Part shown: positions 3,047 through 62,770 of the stretch, piece by piece
How the letters are laid out: the number at the start of each line of letters is the position of its first letter
Position numbering within the stretch: the stretch's first letter is position 1
Source: Eledone cirrhosa
Lineage: Eukaryota
Reading direction: 5' to 3'
Assembly: GCA_964016885.1 (NCBI GenBank)
Contig: OZ024742.1
Coordinates: 354,826,001 to 354,890,000 of the forward strand
DNA length: 64,000 bases
Notes under the pieces: generated by a model
Database searches by the model: none
What the model was told of the DNA's origin: nothing
The model's input: the letters and a program-made list of their open reading frames with translations, nothing else
Made by a program: the position numbers and the translations under genes

Positions 3047-3049
<3 letters not shown>

Positions 3050-3285
3050 ATAGTAATAAATGTGAAGACTAAAATCCAAAGAGGGCTCGATAAGGATAAA
3101 TATATATCAAATATACAAGAACCCTAAAGCAAATATTTATTAAAATAACAGATTAAAGTGTGAGCAAAGAATCGCTGCTTTCACCCTTAACGAGATCTTC
3201 TGAAACTAAGGTTAGTTTCAGAAGATCCCGTTAAGGGTGAAAGCAGAGATTCTTTGCTTAAACTTTAATCTGTTATTTTAATAAA

Positions 3286-3290
<5 letters not shown>
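3047..3290. mobile_element. Palindromic PLE pLTR cassette (family N) between (TA)n tracts
   Basis: Arms 3132-3209 and 3212-3290 are reverse complements around a 2-nt GG apex. Same family at 190-250, 33961-34046, 48518-48970, 55645-56365, 60845-61260 and 62690-62770. Confidence 0.85.
3214..3264 (+). ncRNA. Type I hammerhead ribozyme, U4A core variant (family N)
   Basis: AGTTT CAGAAGA TCCC GTTAA GGGT GAAA GCAGAG ATT CTTTGC TT AAACT: 5-bp stem I, stem II, 6-bp stem III, CUU site. Minus-strand copies at 3157-3207, 48628-48678 and 60863-60913. Confidence 0.7.
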
Positions 3291-3873: not shown

Positions 3874-3919
3874 TGCTAACATTGTTTCATCCGCACTATA
3901 AGTGGGACTCATCAGAGCA
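3874..3919 (-). ncRNA. Canonical type I hammerhead ribozyme
   Basis: Reverse complement of 5890-5935. Confidence 0.88.
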
Positions 3920-5889
3920 TAAAGGTTAATTACATACCACACAAGCAATAACAAATCCAAGACATTGAAGAAATAAAGAATGAAAAATAATAAAAGATAA
4001 AAGATATTGAGGAAGTAAAAATAAAAATAATAATAAACATTGAAAAATAAACAATGAAAAATAATTGAAAAATAAGGGGTGCTATCAGTCACAGTTGGGC
4101 GGGGTGCTGTCAACATATAGTTACATACAAGCATACACATGGATAAGAGAACAGACAAGCATACAAGCATACACATGGATAAGAGAACAGACAAGAATAG
4201 ATAAGATAGATAGGATTAGGTAAGAGTAGATAAAAAATAGGTGAAAAATAGGTAAAAAATAGACTTATAATAAATATAAGAAAATATAAAAAAACATACA
4301 TATAAAATATAAAATATACAGATAATAGTGATACAGGGTAAGGAATGAAATAAAATAGAATAAAATAATATAAGATTAAAATTAAAATTATATAAAATAG
4401 AATATAATATAATATAATAATAAAATAAGATAAAATAAAATAAAATAAAATAAACTAAAATAAAATAAAATAAACTAAAATGAAATAATATAATATAAGA
4501 TATAATTAAATAAATAAAATTAGATAAATAAAATTAAATAAAATGAAATGAAATAAAATAAAATAAAATAAAATAATGTAAATTGAGATAAGATATATAT
4601 TTTTTTAGAATATATTTCTTGAATATATCAGGGGCCCACGAAGGCACTAAGTGTCACAGTTATCAGTATCACTTGACCATTGCAATGCAATGGAGACGTC
4701 CCAGGTTGGGCAGTCTCAAAAGTTCACTCGAAAGTCACGGGTGTGCATTCACACAGTTGAGCGGTGGGGTAATCACAAACCGGTTCATACCCGGGCAGGA
4801 GTCCAATGGTCAACAGAGGTACATCGAAGGAAGGTAGGAGAATTCACGTGCAGCAGCAAGAGGCAGACAGGTGGGCCGAAAGCAAGCAGGTGCAGGCGGG
4901 CTAGCCGAAAGTAAGCAGACACAGTTGGGTCAGGCGGGTTAATATGCATACTCAACAGCGCATACAAAATATATATAAAAAATAATACATATATAAAAAA
5001 TAGCTTCGATGTACCTCTGTTGAGCATTGGACTCCTGCCCGGGTGTGAACCGGTTTGTGATTACCCCACCGCTCAACTGTGTGAATGCACACCCGTGACG
5101 TTCGAGGGAACTTTTGAGACTGCCCAACCTGGGACGTCTCCATTGCATTGCAATGGTCAAGTGATACTAATAACTGTGACACTTAGTGCCTTCGTGGGCC
5201 CCTGATATATTCAAGAAATATATTCTAAAAAAATATATATCTTATCTCAATTTACTTTATTTTATTTTATTTTATTTTATTGCATTTCATTTTATTTAAT
5301 TTTATTCATCTAATTTTATTTATTTAATTATATCTTATATTATATTATTTCATTTTAGTTTATTTTATTTTATTTTAGTTTATTTTATTTTATTTTATTT
5401 TATCTTATTTTATTATTATATTATATTATATTCTATTTTATATAATTTTAATTTTAATCTTATATTATTTTATTCTATTTTATTTCATTCCTTACCCTGT
5501 ATCACTATTATCTGTATATTTTATATTTTATATGTATGTTTTTTTATATTTTCTTATATATATTATAAGTCTATTTTTTACCTATTTTTCACCTATTTTT
5601 TATCTACACTTACCTAATCCTGTCTATCTCATCTATTCTTGTCTGTTCTCTTATCCATGTGTATGCTTGTATGTAACTATATGTTGACAACACCCCGCCC
5701 AACTGTGACTGATAGCACCCCTTATTTTTCAATTATTTTTCATTGTTTATTTTTCAATGTTTATTTTTATTTTTATTTTTATTTTTATTTTTACTTCCTC
5801 AATATCTTTTATCTTTTATTATTTTTCATTCTTTATTTCTTCAATGTCTTGGATTTGTTATTGCTTGTGTGGTATGTAATTAACCTTTA

Positions 5890-7401: not shown

Positions 7402-9751
<2,350 letters not shown>

Positions 9752-9928
9752 TATATACATATATATACACACAAATGAAGTATTTCCGTAGGAAGGATAA
9801 AGGAAAAGAGAGTGCACTATGTAGGCTATATGTATATATATATATATAAACACACACATACAAAAGCAGACACACACACCCATACACACACATAGACACA
9901 CACACACACACACATACATATATATATA

Positions 9929-10428: not shown

Positions 10429-12889
10429 AGGAGGTTATAGTTCACTTGAAGCATTGTGTAATGAGGTATAAACGTTTGAATATGTGTAATAAAGCCAAAA
10501 CAATGCAGGTATGGACATAGAAAAAAGAATGCAATTGTAAAGGATATTGTTGACAATTCGTCCTTTACCTTAGAATTATTTAAATGTCCTTAATTTTCGA
10601 GATAATATCTCTTCTTCACAGTGAAATAAAGGTCTCAAACCAGCGTTCTAAATATCTTGCCAAGCCATGCTGACAGGAAATAGTATAGAGTATCTGTTCT
10701 ATCTCTAATGTCAAAGAGTTAAACTTAGGTGGATAAAGAGTAGTCTGCCTTTAAAAGGGGTTTGTTTAGGTTTTTTTTTTTTTTTTAATATTTTATATAC
10801 ATGCCTGTATAAGTGTGTGGGTGAATGCATGAAGGTGTAAGTATGTGAGTGTGTGTTTGTGAGTGTGAGAAGATAAGTCTATTCGTAAATGTGGGGGATA
10901 GGTGTTATCTGGTGTTAGAACTGGTTATGTGTGTGTATGTGTGAGAGAGAATAAGTGGAGGTGTAAGCGTGTGTGTGTGCGCGTGCGTGTGTGTGTGGGG
11001 GGGGTGTAAATATGGGGCCGGAAGCCCTATCAGGTTATAAATTGGGTGTTGAGTTCTAGTCTATTATTGATTGGTGGTTGTGTTTTATCTATAATTAGTG
11101 CTTCCTTAATTCTAAGATTACCGAGGTTTCTTTCCTTAGTTTCTATCCTAACTGTTATGGTTCTGTCGGTGTTTTTGCATTTAGCTAGGTGTTTCTTAAA
11201 TGAGGAAGCGTTAGTATTGAGGTGTTCTTTTATTCTTATGTGGAGTGGTCTGGTGGTGCTACCTACGTAGAAGTTGTTGCATTTGTCACACTCTAGTCTG
11301 TATACGACGTAAGCCTGGTGGCATAGGTCTGTGTCGTTGATGGGGCAGTTGGCTAGTCTGCAGCAGTTGTCATGTCTGGTGGAGTGTCTCTTGGCCAGCC
11401 GTCCGCACATAGAAGGACCCGAGTGGGCCAGTTGGATATCCAGTCCCTCTCGTCTGATGGCTCTACGGATGGCTGTTGTTGTTTCTTCACTGAAGTGTGG
11501 GAGCTTCAGGAAGCAAGTGTTATTGCCTCGGGTGTGGTGTCCTCTGTTCTTTCTGGCACGGTTTGTGGTGGATGCCGTGTATACGTTCAGTTTGAGTACT
11601 TCCAGAAAATGAGTGGTGTGTGTATCTCGGTCTCTAGCGTCGGTGCATTTGTTCCGGATACATGCTAGTTCGTTCCTTATGTATCCGAACTTGGCACCGA
11701 GTGGGAGGGCCGATCCGAAATGTAAGAACAGGTCCCTGCTAGCGGCTTTTTTTATAGAATCAGGTGTGGATGTTGCCTTCCTCCGTTACCCTGAGTTGGA
11801 AGTCCAGTAGGGATAGGGATCCGCGGTCATCGGGGTGTTCCATGCTGAACTTTATACTGGCGTCCTTGCTGGAGAATGTTGTGTATATTTTATCTGCCTC
11901 CTCACGGGATGATGTAAGGATGAGTATGTCATCTACATATCGGGTGAAGAAGGCATGGGAATGGCAGGTGTTGAGGGCTCGGCATTCTAGCTGGTTCATG
12001 TAGGTGATGGCCAGCAGGCCCGATAGGCTGGATCCCATGGGTAATCCTGTTGTCTGTCTGTATGTGTCGTGGTGGAAGGTGAAGTACGTGTTTTCTACTG
12101 TGAAGGACACAAGCTGGTGTATGTCCGTCGGGTGGAGGCCGTAGCAGTGAATGTCCTCTGCGACCACGCAGTCCGTCAATAAATCGACAGCTGAATGAGC
12201 GGGGACTGTAGTGTAGAGGGGGACAACGTCGAGGCTAAAAGCGTATTTATTTAGTTTAAGTTGTTCTGGCTGGAGTTGGTGTAGTCTACGTATGACTTCG
12301 TCGGAGCTACTGACATGCCTGGGAAAGGTGGAGAGTAGAGGCTTGAGGACCTGGGAGAGGAGCCAGGAAATTTTGTATAGGGGTCCTTCTATGCTAGAGA
12401 CGATGGGTCTTATTTGCGTCTTAGTACTATTCTTGTGGGTCTTGATGATGTGGTAGAAAGTGGGCAGTCTGCTATTTCTAGTGGTGTAGTTGAGCTTAAC
12501 TTTATTTGGGAGTTGTCTTCTATTCCAACTAGATCGCCCACTCCGTCCACCGCCTGCCAACCGCGAGCTTGAAGAAAAACTCTCGAGACTAAAACATTCC
12601 GTATTTAACATCTTACGGAAACAGAAGAAGACAGCCCCAAACCTCTCCAGGACACAACAACCCGCCCTGAAGAACCTACGGAATAGGGAACTTATATACT
12701 TACCATCCGACAAAGGTAAAGAGTTTTGCGTCATCTCTCAAGCCACATACAATAACCTAGCCTTTGAACACCTTAGCGACAGTGAATTATACACAGTGAT
12801 CCCGGACATGACAGCAGCCCTGATCGAAAAACAGACCAACTCCATTTGGTTCGATATCTGTAGGAGAAGACAACTCCCAAATAAAGTTA
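10426..12889 (-). mobile_element. Poseidon/Penelope-like PLE with 5' inversion
   Basis: RT (KTHK, IRPIVS, SLDVVPLYT, GLPMGS, RYVDD, SLLDF) 11760-12520 and GIY-YIG 11030-11410 on minus. The upstream N-terminal part (PSDKGKEFCVIS) is on plus at ~12521-12889. pLTR 10426-10630. Confidence 0.92.
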
Positions 12890-16984: not shown

Positions 16985-19600
16985 ACATGTGTAGTGTCGC
17001 CAATCTGGTGGAATGTCTATAGTTTCTGTCTTTGAACGAGCTCTTGTGGTTGTACATCATCGACTGAAAAGTCGTGGATGTAGCTCCGATGTACGTGTGG
17101 CTATCGTTGTGCGTAGTAACCACACATCTTTATACAACGCCCTTTGTCAGGAACATTCCCTGCAGTTACATGTCCGTGCATTCATTTTTGCAACTCCTGT
17201 TACGTGTTCCTTGCGTCTTATTTGTGTGCTCTGGCGGAATGGTGGATTCAATGTTCACCACCAGCTGGTATCTGCTGGCAGGTCTGGGGCCTTCCGCAGC
17301 CGCAGGTCTGCCCCCAAACACGTCCCCAGAAACATCAGCCACTTCCCCGTGCTCCCCCCGCAACTCCCCCGGTGGGTCCGGTGCCTAACCGTTGCGCCTA
17401 TGAGGTGTCCTCAATTTCAACGCCTTCATCCTGGCCATGTAGTCCACCATGTTGGGTGCCGTGTAAAATGAGAACTTCACGTTGTGCCGATTGAAAATTG
17501 TGTGATACCCGTGTGAAGCCGGGAAACATTCGTCCAATGCACTGAAGAAGAGACCTGGTACGTTAGTGCGTACATGTTTCGAGCAGGGTGCATTAAACCA
17601 TGTGACGTTTATAGATCTATTTCCATTTCGTCGTCTGCTATTAGTGGTGCTTGCATCGTCAAGCTGCTCTCTCGGTTTAAGCCCTACTCCTAATTGACCC
17701 CCCATTCTATCCCTATGCTTAGAAATGTCACTTAATCTGTGGAATGGTCTTCGATCTCTAAGTTGTTATGGGCACGGTTACTAGCCCTATTTTCCGTCTC
17801 TGTCTCGCTACCCTAGTATCCTTACATATCATTACTGGTATTCTTAGTCATGGTATTACCCCTATAGCACCGGCCTGGGTTATCTACTTCACTCTCTATG
17901 GTTTGGCCGTCCCGGTCCGTGGATTTATTACTGTTTAGTCTGTATGTCTTGTGGTCCCTAGGGTTCCAGATTCTCTCAATTGTCTATGCGTTTTGCGGCC
18001 ATCACTGCCGTGTTTAATTCTCCTATCTATACTGTTGGGTGTTTGATTATGTGTAGGTTGTCTGCCTGAGTTATTACTAGCTTTATCAGGGTCTTTTTGT
18101 TCTTCTCTATGCGGCCTGCCCTTGTCCGGGGTATACGCTATTGATTCTGTATACCCTGCCCTGCCCAGTGCCTCATTGTAGTAGTCGGCGTGCTGATTGA
18201 ACACATACACATTGGCGGACAGTGTGGATACTCGGGTGGATAACCCCTTCACTATAGCGTCAATAACCGACTTGGGGTGGTTTGAGTGACTGTTTACATA
18301 CTGCAGGTTCTCGTTGGGCTTGTGATATGGTCGGTATAAGCCTGTATCCAGTTCCAAGTATACGTCTAGGAAATGTACTCTATTAGTGCTATTTTCCCAT
18401 CGCACGGATAAGCCGTGCTGCTAAAAGAAATGGGAGATGCGCTTCCGCATGCGCTCCAGCTGGATAGAGTTTAATGAGCGGAAGGTAAATAGGGCGTCGT
18501 CTCTATATATCCCTCCGCCTATCCCTGGAATCTCCTGTGCTAACCTATGGAGTAGATACATTCCCACCAAATACGACACCTGTGCGGAGTCGCTCGAGCC
18601 CACGGTGATGTCGAAGCTGTCGGGTCTATCTCTCCTTTCCCACAATCTACCGACAAACCTAGTGAGTGTATTTCTAGTAGCTATAATGATGGCTACTAGA
18701 ACTCCAGTTAAGTTGGACCTTGCCATAGCGCTCATGAGGGCCTTGTTTACAATTAATAGTGAGATAGACGCGTAGTAATTTGCTATGTCCAGCTGCACAA
18801 AGTTCACTTGCTGCTTGGTGGGCAGCGCTGTAAACCAGTCTATTACCTCCTTAGTGGAAGTCTATAAGCTAAGTTTATTTCCACTCATAAGAGTGGGCAG
18901 TATCCTATCCATAATATTCTTACTGGCCCTACTTAGGTCTGACTTGGAGGGTGCTATTAATCTAACCGGGTGTCTGGTCTTAAAGTCTAATTTATGGTCC
19001 TTGTTGAAAATCCGCGGTTTTCTAGGTACGTGTTGTTCTGTCTTGTCTGCTACTTCCAAACCTGTCATTAAGCTTTGGGTCGTGTAGTTAATTATGTCAA
19101 TGTTGTCCTGTCCCGTAATCGTATAAATGTTCTTAATCTCTTTCTCCATGCATTTTCCGTAGATTCCGTGGTTCATCCTGTAAATGTTACTCGTCTTATC
19201 TGAAGGTACAAGTAAGTCCGGCAACTCTCCATGCTTTAATCTTCGATCTGAGCTCTTTCGTGTACTGGTTTCCACGTGGTGGATTACTGTTGAATTGTAT
19301 GTTCCTTGCGATGCCTACTGAGCGGTTTTCGAAGGTTTCCAGTGCCCCGTTTTGCGGGGGGTGTTGTCTGAACTTGAAAATCTTCCTAAGGCGGTCGCGT
19401 GGGATGTCCTGAGTCTGTTGTGTGTTCCCGTGGTCGTAGTGGAAGGCCAGCCATCTCATCCGCCTGACAAATGAGTTGGTGTGGTGGATGAGTAGGTGAA
19501 GGTAGGTGTTGTCCGAAAGTATCGTGATGTATTTGGACGAGGAAGAGTACTGGAATCTCTCCATGGCAATTCGCTTCAAGCGCTCGACTTGTGGAGAAGC
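16985..19600 (-). mobile_element. Degraded Nematis-like PLE ORF
   Basis: SFVRRMRWLAFHY, VPSDKTSNIY, KDHKLDF..PVRLIAPSKS, VQLDIANYY, GGIYRDDAL, VHFLDV, VTWFNAP, TYIGATST. Many frameshifts. Confidence 0.9.
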
Positions 19601-19604
19601 AAAA

Positions 19605-21615
19605 TAATTGGTGTTGGTTGCTTAAAGCGTCCGTATGCGATAGGCCGTATGAGCACTCAATGCCCTCGTAGAGGGAGTATGATATCACAGAAAAAAGAGA
19701 ATCACTGATGCGCCGAAAGGAATTTATTGGACATATTTCGAATGTTTCTCGGGCAACCAGCTCGAGGCAAGATCGATATGGATATAACTGACTCTGAAAT
19801 CAAAATGTCTTCGATTCGCGATGCTTAATCAGCTACTTGGATGATGGACATGATGCTTGTCTTGAGGTTAATATCGCAGATAATTGTAATGATGATGTTA
19901 ATTTTAATTTTAATTTAATTTTGATTTCAATTTCAATCTTGTCGTTCCATGCCGCCGATATACACACACACACAACGCATAACGCTGGCACATTTTATCA
20001 TACATACACACCACTAACATTCCATATATATTGTTATGAAACACATCCTCTTTACTTTCCATGTATATACTAAACCCGTGCACATCTCATATATACTTTT
20101 ATCAAATGGAAGTTAAACATAACCACAATATATATAACTTGTTTGTGCACGCATACACGGCCTACACCTATTCACAAGCAACGAGACCTGCATTATGTGC
20201 AGCCTCCTACCCAGTACATTAGCCCAACAACCCCCATCTATTTCATATAAACATTTGAACCACAGCCCACAACTACTGTATGAAACTTTAAGCACACCTC
20301 GATAATGTCCGGTCCCCCTCTGCATCCTTGTCATGTATGCATTCTCTTGTTCTAGCATTTTATTTTATTGTATTTTATTTTATTATTGTATATTATTTCA
20401 TTATTTTATGTTATGTGCATACAGGTTTTTTTTTTAAATATATTAGTACAAGGATATTGTGCTGCCGTAACATGTTGGCATATTGTGCAGATACCCTCGG
20501 ACTCACACCGCCACGTGATCAAGTTAGGTCAAGGCCTCAAACGCGTTGTCTCATACAATACTGTGTGCACCAACTGCGCAGCGGCACGTGGGGGGAGGGC
20601 TACCTATATGCATCCGGTGCTGAGCACGCGGTATGTATGCGTGCCTACACAGACATGTATGTGCACGTGTGTGTGCATGCATGGGTCGATGTATTTGTCT
20701 GAGCATGTATGCGTGGGTGTACGGATGAATTTCCATGGATTGTTCTTTTGCCATCTGCCTATATAAGTGTGCGGCGTCTTGGCTATGCACGCTACCTTGA
20801 GTCCAGTGTGTGAGTGTAGAATTGGGTCTATTTGTTGAAAACACCTTTGATATAGCCCTCCGTTTGAATGGCTGTTGAAAGCTTTCTTTTTAAAAACGCC
20901 TTTTTAAAAAACGTTCTTGTACAGGTTCTTTCTTTTTCTTTGTCCTTTTCTTTTTGAAATATGTATGGCGGAGTGTCTCCTAAGGTTGTATCCAACTAAT
21001 TTTACGCTAAATATCCCCATAACTTGTTTTTTTTTTTTAAATTCCGCAAAACATTATTTATGATGAATGCCGTATACAGCATAATTATGGGTTTGTACCT
21101 GACAGATGTAGACTAAGGCGCCTACGGGCAATGAAGAAGTCGAAGTGATGCCAGCCGTTCAAGATTACAGCCCCTTTTCCACCACAGTAGTAATTCTGAT
21201 ACATGAAGAAATTTTGATTGACAGGTGGAGAAAGAGAGGGAGCAAGACGTGGGCAACCATGAGTGGCTAGAAATACCGATGACGTGTACAATTCTTGACC
21301 ACTCTTGGAATGACAACAACAGGATCTAAATCAACAAACGAAGAAATTCGATGTTAAAAGAATATAGGAAAATCTCATTCGTAGAATCGAGACGTATCTG
21401 ACGACCTTGTTGATTTCAGAGTCTGGTGTGATCCCCATATCGATCGTGCGTCGAACTTTTCACCAGAGAAACTTTTGTAATATGTGTAATACATTCCTTT
21501 CGTCGCAACACTGATTCTCTTTTTTCTAGGATAGCATGTTATGCTCTACAAGAACATTGAGTGCACATACGGCCTACCGCATACGGATGCTTTAAGCATC
21601 CAACGCCAATTACCA
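19605..21615. repeat. Diverged ~210-bp inverted repeat at the 5' side of the Nematis-like element
   Basis: 19605-19810 vs 21403-21615, e.g. ttaaagcgtccgtatgcgataggccgtatg / catacggcctaccgcatacggatgctttaa. Confidence 0.75.
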
Positions 21616-21928: not shown

Positions 21929-22000
<72 letters not shown>

Positions 22001-22006
<6 letters not shown>

Positions 22007-22612
22007 CAGGTACACATACATATATGCACGCATCAGTTTAGCGGACGCTTATTATAACGCCGCTTTGTTCGTTTGTAAACAAACTGAACAGCCTGAATTT
22101 ATGCCATACGGTGTTAAGGCAACCACGTCACCTTTTTGTTCAACACTGACACAGGAACGATGTACTAGTTTCAAGCTTGTTAGCTATCATCAGCACCGTT
22201 TACCCATCTGCCAGATAGTTGAACGTTCGAAAGAATATACTTTCCTTATGAAAATTAACGGCTGAGCAGCCTAATTTGCATATTTTCAACTTATCGTTTT
22301 CGGTATGCCTGACCGATTTAATTCACTCAATATGCAAATTAGGCTGCTCAGCCGTTAATTTTCATAAGGAAAGTATATACTTTCGAACGTTTAACTATCT
22401 GGCAGATGGGTAAACGGTGATGATGATAGCTAACAAGCTTGAAACTAGTACATCGTTCCTGTGTCAGTGTTGAACAAAAAGGTGACGTGGTTGCCTTAAC
22501 ACCGTATGGCATAAATTCAGGCTGTTCAGTTTGTTTACAAACGAACAAAGCGGCGTTATAATAAGCGTCCGCTAAACTGATGCGTGCATATATGTATGTG
22601 TACCTGTATGTA
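22001..22612. mobile_element. 612-bp palindromic HHR cassette between (TA)n tracts
   Basis: Arms 22001-22284 and 22329-22612 near-identical, 44-nt spacer, no coding content. Confidence 0.92.
22158..22198 (-). ncRNA. Canonical minimal type I hammerhead
   Basis: CGGTG CTGATGA T AGCT aaca AGCT T GAAA CTAG TA CATCG. The plus-arm copy 22415-22455 has C3A. Confidence 0.88.
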
Positions 22613-22698
<86 letters not shown>

Positions 22699-26003: not shown

Positions 26004-26060
26004 AAGCCGTTTCGACGGTTATTTCTGGACTCAGTCCAGAAATAGCCGTCGAAACAGCTT
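26004..26060. repeat. Short palindrome containing an HHR stem II and GAAA
   Basis: Apex at 26032. Same family as 30787-30914. Confidence 0.8.
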
Positions 26061-26112
26061 GATCTCTGCCATCGGGATCATCATTTTTGCTATATATATA
26101 TATATATGTATA

Positions 26113-26781
26113 TGAGACTAAAACAAAATATCTGGTAGAGAATGTTGAGAAGCCAGAGGGGATCACTAAGGTAGGCGGGAAGCCGCTGGAATTGGTTGAG
26201 GACTTCCTGTATTTGGGAGCAAAGATTGGGAATACGGAGGATGATGTGGTTGAGAGGAAGAGCAAGGCCTGGGCGGCGTGCCACAGCTTGAGATTGGTGT
26301 GGAAGTCGGACCTTCGTAGAGACCTGAAAATCCGCCTCTTCATTGTTGTAGTAGAGTCTGTGCTGCTGTATGGGTTTGAGACTTGGACACTGACCAAGAA
26401 ACTCACTCAGATGGTGGATGGGTGCTACACGAGAATGCTGAGGATGGCTCTGAACATTAATCAGTATACACTGAGGATGAATAACTCAGAGCTGTATGGG
26501 AGCATCCCAAAAGTCAGCTCAAAAGTGACACAGAGGAGACTGAGGTTAGCTGGACATGCTCACCGACATCCAGAGTTGACATTGCACTCAGTACTCCTTT
26601 GGGAGCCCCTACATGGACACACTAGAAGAGGAAGACCAAGGTTAACGTATGTTGATGCCTTAAGCACAGACACTGGTCTGTTGGAGATGCAGGACATGGC
26701 AGCGATAACAGAGGGACAGAGACCGCTGGAGAATACTCGTCCATGGATCTAGGGAATTTTACCCGCCCTAGATAGATAGAT
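26113..26781 (+). mobile_element. RTE-type LINE 3' fragment
   Basis: LELVEDFLYLG, SVLLYGFETWTLT, RRLRLAGH, RGRPRLTYVD, followed by a (TAGA)n tail. Confidence 0.88.
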
Positions 26782-30673: not shown

Positions 30674-30710
<37 letters not shown>

Positions 30711-30786
30711 CGAAGTAAATGTGGTAAGGAACCAGGTGGACCATAACGCACCAAAGTACTCAATACTTAGGGTAGTAGAGTGGGTA

Positions 30787-30909
30787 ATAGGAACGAGTAG
30801 GACCCCGACGGCTGAGCTCAAGCCGTTTCGACGGTTAATTCTGGACTAAATTTAGTCCAGAATTAGCCGTAGAAACGGCTTGAGCTCAGCCGTCGGGGTC
30901 CTACTCGTT

Positions 30910-30914
<5 letters not shown>
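30787..30914. repeat. 128-bp spacerless palindrome made of the 3' half of an HHR
   Basis: Apex 30850/30851. The arm reads ..GAAA CGGCTTGAGCTCAGCCG TC GGGG. Confidence 0.9.
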
Positions 30915-30952
<38 letters not shown>

Positions 30953-31949: not shown

Positions 31950-32143
31950 TATTTAGTTTTGTTACCCTCGATTACTCTCAGGATCTCCCGCCTTCTCTCC
32001 CACTCACTAACTCTCTCTCTATATATATATGTATAGGTCTATATATCTCCCTCTCTATCTCTCTCTCTATATATATAGAAAGAGAGAGAGCGGGAGAGAA
32101 GGAGGGATATGCCGAGATTAATCGGGGGTAACAAAAGTAAATA
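31950..32143. repeat. Imperfect palindrome around a (CT)n-(TA)n-(AG)n centre
   Basis: ttttgttaccctcgatta..ccttctctccc vs gggagagaagg..taatcgggggtaacaaaa. Confidence 0.7.
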
Positions 32144-32184
32144 AGGTACTAAATACATCAGTGGGTGAGAACAACAAAAATTAA

Positions 32185-32285
32185 TATAGAAATGACTTCT
32201 ACAGAATTAGAACTGTTTCATTCGCATGAAATCATCCATATGAATGAAACAGTTCTAGCCACGTAGAAGCCATTTCGATATTTCT
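32185..32285. repeat. Palindrome folding back inside an HHR core (family of 57057-57222)
   Basis: cttctacag..agaactgtttcattc / gaatgaaacagttctag..gtagaag. The core is cut at GATGA. Confidence 0.7.
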
Positions 32286-34261: not shown

Positions 34262-35134
<873 letters not shown>

Positions 35135-42819: not shown

Positions 42820-45800
42820 GTGTTGAAGTATAAAGACGTGTTTTCACTTCTCTCCCCAAGTAAGCAGCAAGTCACACAGCTACGAAAGAAAACCAAACAA
42901 ACCAAATTGTCCGGTCAAATACATTTACATACAACTATATTCTTATATATTTGAAACCACGTGTTTACCAACTTCTGAGTACATTTTACTTTAACTACAA
43001 ATTATTATATACTTTCGTATTTTCATTAATTTCATTAATTTCAAATAACTAGAATATATTTATATATATATATACTCATATTCATATATACACTTCTCAC
43101 TCACACACAAGAAAAACAAAAGAAAACAAAAAAAAATATATTGAAATACTTAACTAAAACACACACACTCAAAACTAGAATGGCTAACCAGCAAAAATCC
43201 AAACAGAACTGGTCTGATAATGAAATCGACATTCTAATAAACACATGGCATTGCCTTACCCAAACAGAAGACATAGATGCTTCATGTCTGAACGACATTG
43301 CTAAACGTACAGTTCACCTTTTGAAAACCCGATCTGAACAACAGATTCAAAATAAATTAAAGCAAATCGAAGTTGCTTTTAAATTAATCAATAAACATTT
43401 GGATAAACTACGGTGTGTTTTGTTCTTCGGACGCTGTCCAGCAGCAGCAACAGCAGCAATAAGAACAACAGCAGAAACAACGGCAACAACAACAACAGCT
43501 ACAACAACAGCAGCAACAACAGCAACAGCAGCAGCAACAACAACGACAACAGTAACAACAACACCGACAACAACAACAACAGTGTGAACCACTCCCTGAT
43601 TCATCAACAATGGCCGATCTACTAAATGAAACTATTGACCTCCCAGTAGCCACTGTCTCACAGCAGGAAAGGCCCCTTCCTTTCTCTGCCCCAGCAGTCC
43701 AATCATCACCACTGCCAACATCTCCTATGCCTACTACTACTAATACTACTACTACTACAACATCTTTGCCTACTGCTATCTCAAGGAATTTACCTTCTAA
43801 TACCATACGAGAACTCTCCCTCCCACAGCTCACAAATGTCGTCAAAACCTACTCAAACCATCATCTACACCTCTCACAACACACACACACACACATACAC
43901 ACCCACTCGAAACCCCATCATTTGCCGCTACTCTCTACGCTATAGAATATGTACGGATAGTGGCTGCAAATTCACCCATTTACCTAGGACAAAACGGTCT
44001 ATCCCCACAAACAGCCACCACCATAATACATATACTATTTTAATACCAACACAACCATCAATAACTCAAACAAGGAATACACAGATCTGCCGCTTTTCCC
44101 TGCGAGACAGATTGTGTTTACACCGGGATTGTCCATTTACCCATCTCCCGGGGACCCGTCGGACAAAAGAAAATAAAAATAAAAATAAAAGCAAAAACAA
44201 AAACCATAACCTACATAAAAATAACCACTACCACAGTCACCAACAGATTCCAAAACAGGAAACTTCTTCCTCTTTTTTAGCCATAATGAATCTGGCAAAA
44301 GAACTGGAAAAAAAACATTCGAGCTGTCACCCAGCACCATCCTCCACTATCACCCCACTGCACAAACTCCCATTGCTGCCATTAACAAACAAACAAATTA
44401 ACAACACACCAAAACAATTAAAACCATCAACTCTCACCTCAACATTTTTGCTTAACGCCCAAGGCATCAGACCTTTCACCAATACTCAAAAATGGAAGAT
44501 CAAATTCCTGGAGGACTGGGTTGATGTCCATCCAAACCACATCCCTTTCTTCGTCCTCACTGAAACCCATCTCAGTAACCTCCACTTGGAAGCCAAGGTG
44601 AAAGTGAAAAATGTCAAAGCCATCCGTGCTGATCGCGCTGGCAGAAGAAAGGGTGGGACTGCCATTTATGTCCATAAGTCTTTCTCAACAGAGGCTATGA
44701 ACATATTTACTAATGGATACTACGAAGCAGTCACTGTATTCAGTCAAACCAACAACCTAATAGTAGTTGGGCTCTATAGGCCACCCCAAACGCCTCTACC
44801 ATGCTTCAAGGAATGCCTCAACGGTATAAAGTGTTTCATCCAAGAGTGTCACCCTGACAACATCTTAATGATTGGGGACTTCAACCTCCCCGGATTTGAC
44901 TGGTCCACAAACAGCCTGCCACCAGGTTCTTCTGCCTCAACCTCTGACAGGGAAGCAGTGGAAACGCTTCTTGACTTCATGGATGATTTCTTCCTGTCCC
45001 AACTGGTGCTCGAACCAACGAGGTGCCACAAAAACGTCCTAGACTTAATTTTCAGCAATCACACTGACAATATCCACAATATTGCAGTGGAGAAAACTCT
45101 ACTCTCTGATCATGACATACTTCTCTGTGATCTGAGATTCAACCGTCCAATATACAAACCCAATGTCATCTCTCCTGTCTATCCGTTTGACGCTATGGAT
45201 TTCCACAATGCAAACTGGGAAGCGATCAGTCATGATCTTGCACATGTCGACTGGCCTTCACGCACACTCATACACCCACTAACATTAAAAAGTCCTGGCA
45301 GACATTTGTGGACACTGTTACAAACATATGTGCAAAACACACCCCATTAAGAACTATAAATAAATCTAAGAGCAGAATCCCTAGAAATAGAAAAACGCTC
45401 ATCAGGAAGATTAAGAGAACTAACAAAAATATCAACAAGCTGAAATTCTGTCAGCAGCAACACATCAACTTGACTGCCATTTCATCACTAGACATTAAAA
45501 AACATAACCTCCAAAACAATATGATGTATGTCATCAACAATCAGAGAAGAGCTGAAGAGGCCTGGGCCATTGAGAAGATCAAACGCAATCCCAAAGTGTT
45601 CTTTTCATTTACAAAAAAACACAAAATCACTGGCTCTACTGTTGGCCCTCTAATTGATGAAGATGGCACTCTTCAAGACAATGCTAAAACCATGGGTGAG
45701 ATACTGCAGAAAATTACTGCTCTATTTTCAGCAATCCTGATATGGCCGATCTGGGCTGTATCGGCGATGTTACTCCCCATTACACCTTATTGGACATAAC

Positions 45801-47472
45801 GTTTGGCGCCTCTGATGTCTTAGCGGCAATAAAAGAAATCAAGCATAATTCAGCAGTAGGTCCCGATAGGTTCCCTGCTTGTGTCTTGAAGGCGTGTCAA
45901 CACCAACTTACATCTCCTCTTGCCAATCTGTGGCGGAACTCACTGGATGCTGGATATGTGCCAGAAAACCTACTATCCCAGTCTGTTGTCCCAGTTTTCA
46001 AAAAAGGAAACAAATCCCTTGCCGTGATTTACAGTACAATCTCACTACCCTCTCATATCATTAAGGTATTTGAGAGAGTAGTGATATCGCGAATGACTCA
46101 CTTCCTTGAGAGTAACAATATGCTGAACTCCAACCAGCATGGATTCCGTAATGGAAGGGACTGCCTGACGCAGCTACTGCATCACTTTGATGACATTTCG
46201 AGAGCTTTGGGAGAGGGTTCCAACACTGATGTTATCTACCTTGATTTCAGCAAGGCCTTTGACAGGGTTGATCACAACATTCTACTGAGAAAGCTGTCCA
46301 ATATTGGTGTCACTGGAAAGCTGATGCAGTGGATCAAGAGCTTCCTGTCAAACAGAACCCAACCTGTTGTAGTCGAAGGAGTGAAATCCAGCAGAGCCAA
46401 AGTCAGTAGTGGGGTCCCACAAGGCACTGTGTTGGGCCCACTTCTCTTCATCATCTATATTTATGACATCAATGACATCATCAAACACAGCAACATTAGA
46501 ATTTTCGCTGATGATTCCAAGCTCCAAAAGGTCATCAATGGCAAGGATGACTGGATAAGCCTTCAGTTAGACCTACTGGCTGTTACCCACTGGGCGGAAA
46601 AGAACATGTTACTGAACGAAGACAAATTCGAACTGATCCACTTTGGAAATGAGGATGCTCTGAAACTCCCGTACTCCTTTCCCTCCAGTGAAACTCTCGT
46701 GGTATCTAACAACATCAGAGACTTGGGAGTAACCGTGGACAGCAACATAAGCTGGGCCACGCATATAAGCAGCAATGTTGACATGGCCCGCAGAATGTGT
46801 TCCTTGATCCTCAGAACCTTCCAGTCGAGAGATTCCCACACCATTATCCTTCTCTTCTCCACTTTTGCCCGACCTCATCTTGAATACTGTTGTCCACTGT
46901 GGTCTCCCCACACGAAACAAAGTATCATGAAACTTGAAGCTCCCCAAAGGGCAATCACGAAAAAGATAGATGGCATGTCAGACCTTGACGACTGGGATCG
47001 ACTAGAAAAGCTGAAACTTTACCCACTTCAACGTCGCCGTGAGCGTTATATTATCTGCATGATGTGGAAAATGTTTAATCAGCACAGCCCAAATGATGTT
47101 GGCATAACCTTCATAATACACCCAAGGTTTGGGCCCCGTGCTATCCGTCCCAAACAAAAATCTAAATCGCAACTCATAACAACAATACGGCACAATTATT
47201 TCACCTCAATTGGCCCTGCTCTCTACAATATCACACCAGGACACGTCAGAACAGAAACGGACCACACACATTTCAAGAAGTCTTTGGACAAATTCCTCCA
47301 AGTAATCCCGGACAAACCACCCACACCCGGATATGTCTCGGCAAACAGTAATTCTCTTCTCGAATGGGCCATGGTGCCCAAATCCTGAATTGAAAGACTT
47401 CGCCAGGTGGTGCTATTAAGTTAAATATGGCCAGGGTCAATACTGGCGAAAACATTTCAAAGTTATTCAAAG

Positions 47473-55538: not shown

Positions 55539-55616
55539 TGCCTCTCTTTTGTTCTGTCCTACGCCATCTTGTTTCTCTTGAAACAAGATGGCGTAGGAGA
55601 GAACAAAGGAGAGGCA
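55539..55616. repeat. 78-bp palindrome
   Basis: cctacgccatcttgtttc TCTT gaaacaagatggcgtagg. Confidence 0.8.
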
Positions 55617-55675
55617 TTAACTAATGAATATATATATATATATATATTTATTAAAATAACAGTTTAAGGTTTAAG

Positions 55676-56360
55676 CAAAGAATCGCTGCTTTCACCCTTA
55701 ACTGTATCTTCAAAGAATCGCTGCTTTCACCCTTAACGGGATCTTCAAAGAATCGATGCTTTCCCCATTAACGGGATCTTCAAAGGATCACTGCTTTCAC
55801 CCTTAACGGGATCTTCAAAGAATCGCTGCTTTCACCCTTAACGGGATCTTCAAAGAATCGATGCTTTCACCATTAACGGGATCTTCAAAGGATCACTGCT
55901 TTCACCCTTAACGGGATCTTCAAAGAATCGCTGCTTTCACCCTTAACGGGATCTTCAAAGAATCGCTGCTTTCACCCTTAACGGGATCTTCAAAGAATCG
56001 CTGCTTTCACTCTCAACGGGATCTTCAAAGAATCGCTGCATTCACCCATAACGGGATCTTCAAAGAATCGCTGCTTTCACCCTTAACGGGATCTTCTAAG
56101 AATCCCTGCTTTCACTCTGAACGGGATCTTCAAAGAATCGCTGCATTCACCCTTAACGGGATCTTCAAAGAATCGCTGCTTTCACCCTTAACGGGATCTT
56201 CAAAGAATCGCTTCTTTCACTCTGAACGGGATCTTCAAAGAATCGCTGCATTCACCCTTAACGGGATCTTCAAAGAATCGCTGGTTTCACCCTTAACGGG
56301 ATCTTCAAAGAGTCGCTGGTTTCACCCTTAACGGGATCTTCAAAGGATCGCTGCTTTCAC

Positions 56361-56365
<5 letters not shown>
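55676..56365 (-). repeat. 35-bp tandem array (19 full units + 25 nt) derived from a hammerhead core
   Basis: Unit CAAAGAATCGCTGCTTTCACCCTTAACGGGATCTT with an exact 35-bp period from 55676 to 56341. Matches the family N HHR. Confidence 0.95.
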
Positions 56366-57056: not shown

Positions 57057-57222
57057 ATATAGAAAATATTCTACAGGACTAGAACTGTTTCATTCGTGAG
57101 AAATCATCAGGAAGCTGACTGTCCAAGTAAATATGGTGGTATATAAATATACTTGGATAGTCTGCTTCCAGATGATTTCTCACGAATGAGACAGTTCTAG
57201 TCCTGTAGAAGTTTTTCTATAT
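57057..57222. ncRNA. 166-bp palindrome with two hammerheads (57068-57114 minus intact, 57165-57211 plus mutated)
   Basis: CTTC CTGATGA TTTC tcac GAAT GAAA CAG ttctagtc CTG TA GAA. The plus copy has CAGATGA and GAGA. Confidence 0.78.
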
Positions 57223-60851: not shown

Positions 60852-62770
60852 TAACAGATTAAAGTTTAAGCAAATAATCGCTGCTTTCACGATTAACGAG
60901 ATCTTCTGAAACTAAAAAATCAATCTTTGTACGCAGAAGTAACTATTTCAAAAAACGTTGCAACCGATGGAGGACAAGAAGACGATACTTTGGTTCGTGG
61001 AAATGTTCCCTGGCAAAGAACGAAAAAAACGAAGATAATACGTCATTATTTGGACCGGTGAAACAAATAGGCGCAAAGACAAAACAACGTTGATGGTATA
61101 AATGAAGTGATAGACAAATATTCTTTGAGGGGGTCCATGGAGACGTTCCCTGGCAATGAACGAGAAAAACAAAGATAATACGTCAAAACCACGTAAAAGG
61201 TATAACTGAAGTCGTAGACTAAAATTCTATCTAGGAAACCGAATGATTCTCAGCTTCAAAGTTAAGAATAAAGTAAATAAAATACTTAGGTAATCCACAT
61301 TAAATATATACATACACGCACCCATGTACGTACATACACAAGTATACGCGAAAACACTCGCCATGGGTATACAAATAGAAGCATGTACATAAAAAAAGCC
61401 GCACGCCCATACAGAACCCACTCAACGCTTGTACCCGCACACATACGGACGAATACACCAAATACACATAAGACTATATATAAAATAAATACATATATAT
61501 ATATGTGTCTGTGTGCGAGTGTATACATATAATTAAATACATGTATATAAATAAATAAATACTTATATAACGCGCGCACACACATACCCACATGTAAAAA
61601 CACGTATGTTCGCAGATGTACGTCAAACAAAACACAAAGTACACAAATACACACACCCTACATATGTACGAACCCGCATACTCACACAGACGCAAAAATC
61701 ACGTATACACAGAACCAAATGCACATGTAGCAGAATATATAATATCATATATACGGCTATAACATATACAAGCAAATATACGAACGAGAAAGTATACGTA
61801 CCTTCACAAAACATACAGGTAATATATACTTACCTATACAAATAAGTAATGTTATAAACATAACATATACTTAGCTACCACATCAAGACGTAACATATCC
61901 GCGTATAGTTCGTACTATCCGTTAGGGTATAATGTGGAGCTGTAATATGAGAAAGATTTGTGCAATCTATGTTTACAAGCCGAAATTGCCTCAGATTTTT
62001 TGTTTAAGATGTGGTCTTTGGCGTAGGGTATTTCCAGGGCCTCAGCGGCGTAGAGGTCACTTGTTCTTTTATTTCCGTTATACGATCTAGCCTTAGCTAG
62101 GATCTCCCAGTGCAACTTATCTTTTGTGTGGTTGTCTTTTAGACTCCAGCTATTAGCTGAAAGTGACATCATATTCCTTCTTAAAGGGTTAAGAAAAGAA
62201 CGGGTATGCATGTAAAGACACTGCTTGATTTTATTGCCGGTTAACCCTATGTAGGCCCTACAGGACGTGAGTGTTTCAACCTTACATTTGTAGACAATGT
62301 TACTAGAGAAGCATTTCCCGGATAGGGGGCAGTCAACACGATTCCTGCAATTACAGTTAGTACTACTTACAGGGTTGCCCGTTTTCCTACGACTAGGTAA
62401 TTTAGGTAATTTTGAAGCTGTGATGTTATGTGCAAGGTTAAGAGTCGTAGTGTAAGATATTTTAATGGTATTCCTATTAAAAAGTGTACTATATTTATGT
62501 GGTTGGGGGAAATGCTTCATAATAAGGGAGAGAAAGATCTTAGCTAATGGTGGGTTATCCCATGTAATACATCGGGATCTATTTTTCCTAGGTCTATTCT
62601 CGTACTCTGTATATGCTACCTTAATGACAAATCCACTCCGAGCAAGTGCTTCATTGTAATATGTGGAATGGTCGTTGAAAAAATATTCGGTCTATGTTTC
62701 TTATATATTTGATATACAATTATCCTTATCGAGCCCTCATTGAATTTTCGTTTTCAAATGTTATTATTAC
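60845..62770 (-). mobile_element. Nematis-like PLE 3' fragment carrying the family N pLTR
   Basis: ORF 61915-62520 NCNCRNRVDCPLSGKC..IVYKC..YIGLT..CKH. pLTR at 60845-60985, inverted end at 62690-62770. Confidence 0.85.

Follow-up and report, generated by a model that had tools for sequence, protein, structure and literature searches.

A head-to-head stub of a Hydra-type Penelope-like element in Eledone cirrhosa, probably formed by twin-primed reverse transcription

Results and discussion

A palindromic stub within (TA)n sequence

The window analyzed here, a stretch of 64,000 nucleotides from Eledone cirrhosa, contains a 202-bp insertion at 30710-30911. It lies inside (TA)n tracts (left flank 30680-30709, right flank 30912-30947), which mask any target-site duplication, and it is composed of two mirror arms and an 80-bp tail joined to one of them. 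The right part is a palindrome (30790-30911, or 30787-30914 including the ATA/TAT ends) with a perfect centre, arms of 61 bp, a spacer of 0 and two mismatches. Its score of 53 is far above chance, as the best palindromes in 20 shuffles of the TA-masked window score 9 to 12. This spacerless palindrome had been reported in a first-pass annotation made from the sequence alone and is real; the leftward extent of the element to 30710, via the one-arm tail, had been missed.

Read from left to right, the tail (30710-30789, minus strand) has as its outer end a putative reverse transcription (RT) start site, site A; in full-length units the tail sequence continues into the 5' UTR and ORF. The tailed arm (30790-30850) is the 3' half of a hammerhead ribozyme with its sense on the minus strand and a private change at 30835. 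At the joint (30847-30854) the axis falls between 30850 and 30851 and there is no loop; the A+1 of a TT-AGT motif is located at 30854 on the plus and at 30847 on the minus strand. The tail-less arm (30851-30911, sense on plus) ends at a second putative RT start site, B, followed by TAT in both the element and the target. As first described, each arm holds the GAAA-stem III-TC part of the ribozyme (30872-30894 on the plus strand, with a near-palindromic loop on stem III, mirrored at 30807-30829 on the minus strand), and the CTGAnGA box is absent from both strands. The homologous cleavage site falls after 30894, and base 30871 is a private C-to-A change. Lacking a 5' box upstream of stem II, the palindrome is not itself a type I hammerhead. 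No Rfam family matches anywhere in the window at the gathering score.

Genome-wide searches were made in the 3.0-Gb assembly. The top matches to the insertion are all built in this way (1,497 candidates, 40 of them scored, with 30 loci fetched). As an exact pattern, the symmetric core of the palindrome is present at 10,676 loci, where such counts cover only centres at least as long as the search patterns. The locus is one of more than 10,000 stub insertions, a dead copy of an element type already known.

An older-subfamily copy is found at 26004-26090 (plus strand), with a centre of ACT-C-AGT containing one extra base at 26032. Its plus arm is tail-less and the other arm is lost beyond 26004. 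The relationship proposed earlier for 26004-26060 is confirmed: the copy carries T/G at the corresponding position, and its AATT/AATT is replaced by ATTT/AAAT. The T/G pair, taken for a meaningful wobble, is indeed present at both loci but represents a sporadic minority state (262 loci against 10,676 symmetric ones, 2.4%). We inspected 40 of these 262 loci in listing order, skipping eight places already listed: 37 could be oriented, and of these 21 have the wobble base in the tail-less arm and 16 in the tailed one; the other 3 are not orientable. Since the frequency matches the ordinary arm-to-arm divergence (40 of 1,520 sites or 2.6%, in 38 gap-free arm pairs) and either arm carries it, the wobble is a private mutation, which the two loci probably share by chance. 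The supposed compensatory pair AATT/ATTT turns out to be a subfamily variant found in both mirror arms, which mirror copying produces automatically; only 194 loci are discordant.

The parent element

Un-inverted native copies were reached through locus L065. The parent occurs as tandem units of 3.53-3.55 kb with an ORF of 717-719 amino acids, and the 3' end of this ORF and the 5' UTR contain the sequence of the insertion. By inspection, the 717-aa ORF has the RT-like motifs FDIESYY and YRDDG and a VIY...YIG near its C-terminus. Domain labels rest on these motifs, given that no match was obtained against Pfam (E 0.01) or PDB sequences (E 0.1). The motifs SDKTG (DKT for DKG), CNCPDRSIC (the CxCX5C linker), CNLC (CxxC) and CKH (CxH), the C-terminal GIY-YIG-type domain, the (TA)n insertion preference and a hammerhead near the 3' end are all as in the Hydra clade, as far as this is described in PMC8557442. 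There are differences: the unit is 3.5 kb against generally less than 3 kb, RWR stands for RWK (present in a neighbouring family), and stem II is long and the 5' box CUGAGAA, UUGAGAA or UUGAUAA, in contrast to the canonical CUGAnGA and short stems of the Hydra ribozymes listed in that source. Judged by its motif match to the clade description, the parent is a Hydra-type Penelope-like element (PLE). An intact, young 717-aa ORF is available at L236:3957-6110; it has no Pfam match at E 0.01.

With an open pattern 1,614 matches are obtained, and among the 100 listed, 98 are native pLTRs and none has CTGAnGA. In native pLTRs, stem I is followed by a variant 5' box (CTGAGAA, replaced in younger subfamilies by TTGAGAA or TTGATAA), then by the 5' strand of stem II, a loop of 30-32 nt and the 3' half. 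For the youngest native subfamily, the predicted minimum-energy fold has stems I, II and III in a hammerhead shape with a long stem II, while the fold predicted for an older subfamily differs from this three-way shape (z -1.6). From the sequence, position 3-8 would be U3-A8 in the young subfamilies, a variant also described for PLE hammerheads (PMC4209133), and C3 with A8, a mismatch, in an abundant older subfamily. An earlier idea that the youngest subfamily has no long parent (initially 0 matches) was dropped once long copies with a different 5' box were found.

The native copies bear directly on the original explanation of the palindrome, according to which its centre is the native stem II and a cDNA folded back on it and copied itself. 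A long stem II with this same 3' strand is indeed present in the native ribozyme. The palindrome centre differs from it, however: un-inverted copies show another 5' strand (resembling the mirror arm, not identical to it) and the 30-32-nt loop, of which palindromes retain no more than the final 0-14 nt, in mirrored form. Among 50 listed of the 1,271 palindromes with long centres, at most 1 crosses the native loop and 5' strand. A CTGAnGA box preceding the arm, the check suggested at the time, gives 0 matches genome-wide. When CTGANGA is searched within 4-34 nt of the 3' half, the 13 matches are on reading palindrome centres or chimeras, L038 aside. Considering also that the wobble is sporadic and that the apices of a second family (family 3, below) lie in stem I, we regard a cDNA folded on native stem II as a highly improbable origin. 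The feature is real; the stem II nucleation model is wrong. What remains of that description is the identity of the sequence as the 3' half of a retroelement hammerhead and the origin of the left arm as a mirror copy produced during insertion.

Complex insertions of EN+ PLEs have been described in which an inverted, 5'-truncated pLTR is combined with a one-sided tail (PMC8557442; PMC3846280). The present family shows the same traits: a single ORF with RT and GIY-YIG (by motifs), pLTR-forming tandems and an inverted truncated copy with a one-sided tail. At locus L104, the same two ends flank a 1.25-kb inverted arm around a truncated ORF, and among 100 native-pattern matches listed there are 18 inverted pairs 0.2-4 kb apart (counted by eye). 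These long forms place the stub at the short end of the range covered by the published inverted-pLTR-plus-tail structure. As far as those two sources describe them, the published insertions share with ours the head-to-head arm, the tail at one end, partial tandems, (TA)n targets and palindromic junctions. They differ in that the tail measures 30-40 bp against 80 bp here, and in that the commonest product here is a 200-bp stub whose two arms end at the same base.

Outer ends of the arms

One tailed and one tail-less arm are seen in 40 of 41 palindromes (first 40 places listed), the remaining one having no recognizable tail. The same plan holds in two other samples (23 of 28, with 2 others carrying two tails, and 37 of 40). 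To describe the ends we used 63 bystander arms, that is, arms not used to select the loci; this number includes both arms of the window palindrome and some loci that overlap. Outer ends fall at +61 in 22 and at +141 in 34 of the 63 (56 in total). Only 1 of the 63 starts near the hammerhead cleavage site, and there is no pile-up of copy ends there. In loci L053 and L227 an arm begins at the homologous cleavage site, which hints at occasional copying of cleaved RNA.

The two outer ends would correspond to RT start sites, by analogy with an anole element (PAc, of the Poseidon type) studied in vitro. In that element, two RT start sites delimit the tail, and cleavage and extension occur on both strands of the target (PMC11167929); the same work reports a predicted dimer and the use of uncleaved RNA. 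PAc thus resembles our family in its two internal start sites bounding the tail, in the cutting and extension of both strands, and in that hammerhead cleavage is dispensable. It belongs to a different clade, and run-off at a natural cap and inverted arms are outside what PMC11167929 addresses in the part drawn on here.

Inner ends gather at TT-AGT

For each of the two arms, the A of TT-AGT is the most frequent inner end (22 and 21 of 100 oriented loci). In these loci the tail-less arm is longer in 37, the tailed arm in 47, and both are equal in 16; some arm extents are overestimated, as every native loop variant was allowed in scoring them. Bystander arms start at -4 to +7 in 30 of 63 cases and much further upstream in 15, these being mostly the partners of long copies that had been selected. 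Joints in short-read contigs enter at 30850-30859 in 12 of the 15 listed (with 62 further ones beyond these), however long the partner arm is. Contig depth, which is not a copy number, rises approximately tenfold at the joint site and drops past the tail. Short tandems restart at the TT-AGT site after a jump into the 5' UTR or the start of the ORF (5 loci of 30). These tandems, of approximately 200-260 bp (L207/L208, L211, L213, L214 and L216), are possible seeds of retrozyme-like arrays. We also considered the TTTAG motif as a 3' splice site and dropped this, as many arms keep the native upstream T-run.

Two other hammerhead families are present in the window. For family 3 (window 3137-3284) we found 952 palindromes, the arms of which stop at the same TT-AGT, located there in the 5' strand of stem I. 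In family 2, the ends gather approximately six bases before CTGATGA (25 stored examples, descriptive only). The apices are thus non-random, as had been predicted; they are not tied to a ribozyme helix. Since families 1 and 3 stop at TT-AGT in different helices (loop II here, the 5' strand of stem I in family 3), the apex follows the sequence motif TT-AGT. The palindromes at 32185-32285 and 3132-3290, listed in the first-pass annotation as further cases, are indeed fold-backs, of these two other hammerhead families.

Long centres consist of A/T runs and repeated templated inserts in both orientations (50 listed of 1,271). One might argue that such repair-like inserts are traces of a later collapse, in which cruciform cutting and repair removed the centre of long inverted insertions and left short ragged palindromes. 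Perfect palindromes are unstable, and long inverted pairs do exist in this genome. Against this, non-palindromic tandems and simple truncations begin at the same base, the youngest copies, with identical arms, are already short, and a fixed base shared by two families is left unexplained by collapse. We consider it very unlikely.

The variable centres also speak against a palindrome that propagates itself as a MITE- or SINE-like unit. More than 10,000 near-identical copies in TA targets could suggest such a unit, yet centres vary from copy to copy within every subfamily, subfamily variants are common to both arms without any inherited asymmetry, and long parents exist in each subfamily examined. 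This origin is the most improbable of those weighed. A MITE in the sense of a DNA transposon was rejected because of the variable centres and the tail outside the repeat, as opposed to a fixed interior between terminal inverted repeats. A non-LTR retrozyme, which has tandem non-coding units each with a complete hammerhead according to the part of 10.64898/2026.07.22.740005 used here, was rejected as well, the locus being a single stub with half a ribozyme and a coding parent.

A candidate capped transcription start

In native copies a TATA-like word begins at -29 or -31 from the A of TT-AGT, although such words are common in AT-rich DNA. Reading the shared inner end as a transcription start draws on the initiator consensus and the usual TATA spacing. 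A TATA and an initiator-like motif are likewise noted as a pair in a rotifer pLTR (PMC3846280). For L1, an untemplated 5' G is an accepted hint of cap copying, whereby the copied cap adds a C to the cDNA (PMC9341517).

The cleanest test for a copied cap uses a context picked to exclude a templated CAG: here C and G follow the cDNA end in a ratio of 72:28 (first 100 of 485 matches listed, counted by eye; p approximately 1e-5). Two-base inserts are CG in 7 cases, GC in 1 and mixed in 8 (p 0.07). Three-base inserts of the form C-W-G occur in 50 of 50 loci listed (of 88) and in 49 of 50 (of 72), but these inserts and a ratio of 450:182 can also be obtained from a templated CAG/CTA insert, so that the ratio is confounded. 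With T as the third insert base, C and G are about equal, and three-base inserts of G/C are found at only 3 and 2 loci. Direct TA junctions show no excess of C (C:G 22:30; control one base in, 15:10). Family 3 has a C:G ratio of 51:49 overall, where the G rows are probably long native variants, and 27:2 only in a subset that was chosen afterwards. Taken together, the TATA-like box, the initiator-like motif and the extra G suggest that the A of TT-AGT is the transcription start, and the cap reading is favoured.

The shared inner end could alternatively reflect an RT stall or an RNA cut in distal stem II or loop II (stem I in family 3), again with twin priming. The long stem II predicted for the native RNA extends over the stop site, and the negative cap test at TA junctions would agree with a stall. 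However, the stop is at the far edge of the helix rather than at its entry, the two families stop at TT-AGT in different helices, and neither the extra-G excess nor the TATA-like box at the expected distance would be accounted for. This alternative is unlikely.

One strand or two at the joint

Centre loops measure 0-2 nt in 39 of 109 palindromes and 4 nt or more in 65; the palindrome at 30790-30911 has none. The commonest centre has a 6-nt loop (28 of 109), looks like a fold-back and is not accounted for by a cap. Either orientation of this centre to the tail is represented (10 and 8). At seven subfamily sites the two arms agree in 34 of 38 loci, against 22% expected under random pairing of pooled copies. 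This agreement implies that both cDNAs usually derive from one RNA or one active source, and it is equally compatible with one template, one burst or two cDNAs. Clear chimeras are rare: in L107 and L151 the haplotypes of the two arms belong to different subfamilies, the outcome expected from two RNA templates.

Part of these data would be expected if one cDNA reached the end of the RNA, folded back and copied itself into the second arm. This self-priming is in line with the larger loops, with the inverted templated inserts at joints and with the concordance of the arms, and it has been proposed for palindromic junctions of Adineta elements, with an antisense template (PMC3846280, as far as described there). 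A single strand folding back, as originally envisaged at our locus, is contradicted on several points. Either arm may be the longer one, the commonest centre is found in both orientations, an extra base is seen on both inner ends, and chimeric arms exist in L107 and L151. In addition, loops of 0-2 nt are too tight for a fold-back, and a second primed cDNA is needed because self-copying of a tail-less cDNA cannot supply the tail. As the source of the second arm we find self-priming quite unlikely. Transient fold-back probably shapes many joints, at the end of the RNA rather than on stem II. We read the junction as two run-off ends, different from the published self-priming; two identical cDNA ends paired through their terminal AT would give the zero-loop joint at 30850/30851.

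Proposed mechanism

In L1 twin priming, a nick in the second strand acts as a second primer and leads to an inversion, and in LTR retroelements RT primed near the 5' end of the RNA yields a short run-off, the strong-stop DNA. We think it likely that the locus is a short head-to-head insertion of a Hydra-type PLE formed by twin-primed RT at two start sites, run-off at the presumably capped 5' end of the RNA, and end-joining. Both nicked strands of the (TA)n target would prime RT, one at each start site of the element, and both cDNAs would run off the RNA end and then be joined head to head. With a transcript starting in the upstream pLTR, the start sites would be 61 and 141 nt from the 5' end, giving strong-stop-like stubs, and a cDNA that jumps instead of being joined would give short tandems. 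The hammerhead would be a passenger and the copied RNAs uncleaved. The direct evidence consists of the parent, the tailed and tail-less arms, the sharp outer ends, the inner ends piled at the A of TT-AGT, and the ragged joints with A/T runs and templated inserts; from these, we infer the joining of two cDNA ends.

L1 resembles this scheme in its second-strand nick as a second primer and in the cap copied as an extra G (for the 5' G, PMC9341517). It differs in that its second primer is placed at variable internal sites and its arms do not overlap, whereas here the sites are fixed and the same stretch is copied twice.

A more far-reaching version is tentative, and we give it somewhat less than an even chance. 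PLE insertion would then be obligatory twin priming, its dominant product would be a head-to-head pair of strong-stop cDNAs, each with a copy of the cap, and every stub would pinpoint the transcription start at single-base resolution. The TATA-like box of this family would overlap the 5' strand of stem II, with loop II as the spacer between TATA and initiator. The transcript would begin inside the hammerhead, the 5' copy being unable to cut and the read-through 3' copy being whole, and jumps from the capped end would lead to partial tandems and pLTRs.

The formation of tandem and inverted PLE structures is named as unresolved in PMC8557442. The architecture of an inverted arm plus tail is already published. 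In the open-access literature searched, no paper was found that connects the inverted junctions of PLEs with run-off at a capped start. The family studied here offers a natural dataset, with more than 10,000 independent joints, an ORF that is young and intact, and two outer ends already mapped, and it lends itself to an in vitro test of two-ended run-off against fold-back. If the run-off reading is true, stubs would map PLE promoters without RNA data, an uncleaved, capped RNA would be the template in vivo, and the long-open insertion step of PLEs would become testable. The locus itself is dead, but its joint, repeated 10,000-fold, carries a testable clue to the insertion mechanism.

Other elements in the window

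The family-3 copy extends from 3047 to 3284, with a tail at approximately 3047-3136 and the palindrome at 3137-3284, the arms of which end at TT-AGT in the 5' strand of stem I. At 3219-3225, as in most stored family-3 copies, the 5' box reads CAGAAGA, an A replacing the conserved U4. A family-2 copy at 32113-32285 (approximate boundaries) consists of a tail and an asymmetric fold-back with its joint inside the core, and a family-2 palindrome with a 20-nt spacer at 57057-57222 has arms reaching approximately 20 nt upstream of CTGATGA. On the minus strand, at 55650-56365, a 35-bp piece of the family-3 hammerhead is repeated head to tail approximately 19 times, up to the normal tail-less end; the array looks like repeated slippage of the RT template, telomerase-style. 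A fold-back of a further family is present at 55539-55616 (37-bp arms, 4-nt spacer), and a similar one flanks L033.

Long inverted repeats at 4160-5673 (670 bp), 21933-22680 (352 bp) and 34263-35014 (305 bp) are probably long inverted PLE ends; the first is bracketed by a mirrored CTGATGA...GAAA at 3915 (minus) and 5894 (plus). Remnants at 11030-12737 (minus), 43650-47388 (plus) and 26063-26752 (plus) presumably represent another PLE type and two non-LTR retrotransposons. Broken ORFs resembling, by eye, the same kind of PLE protein from other families are found on the minus strand at 8026-9816, 17935-19621 and 61915-62691.
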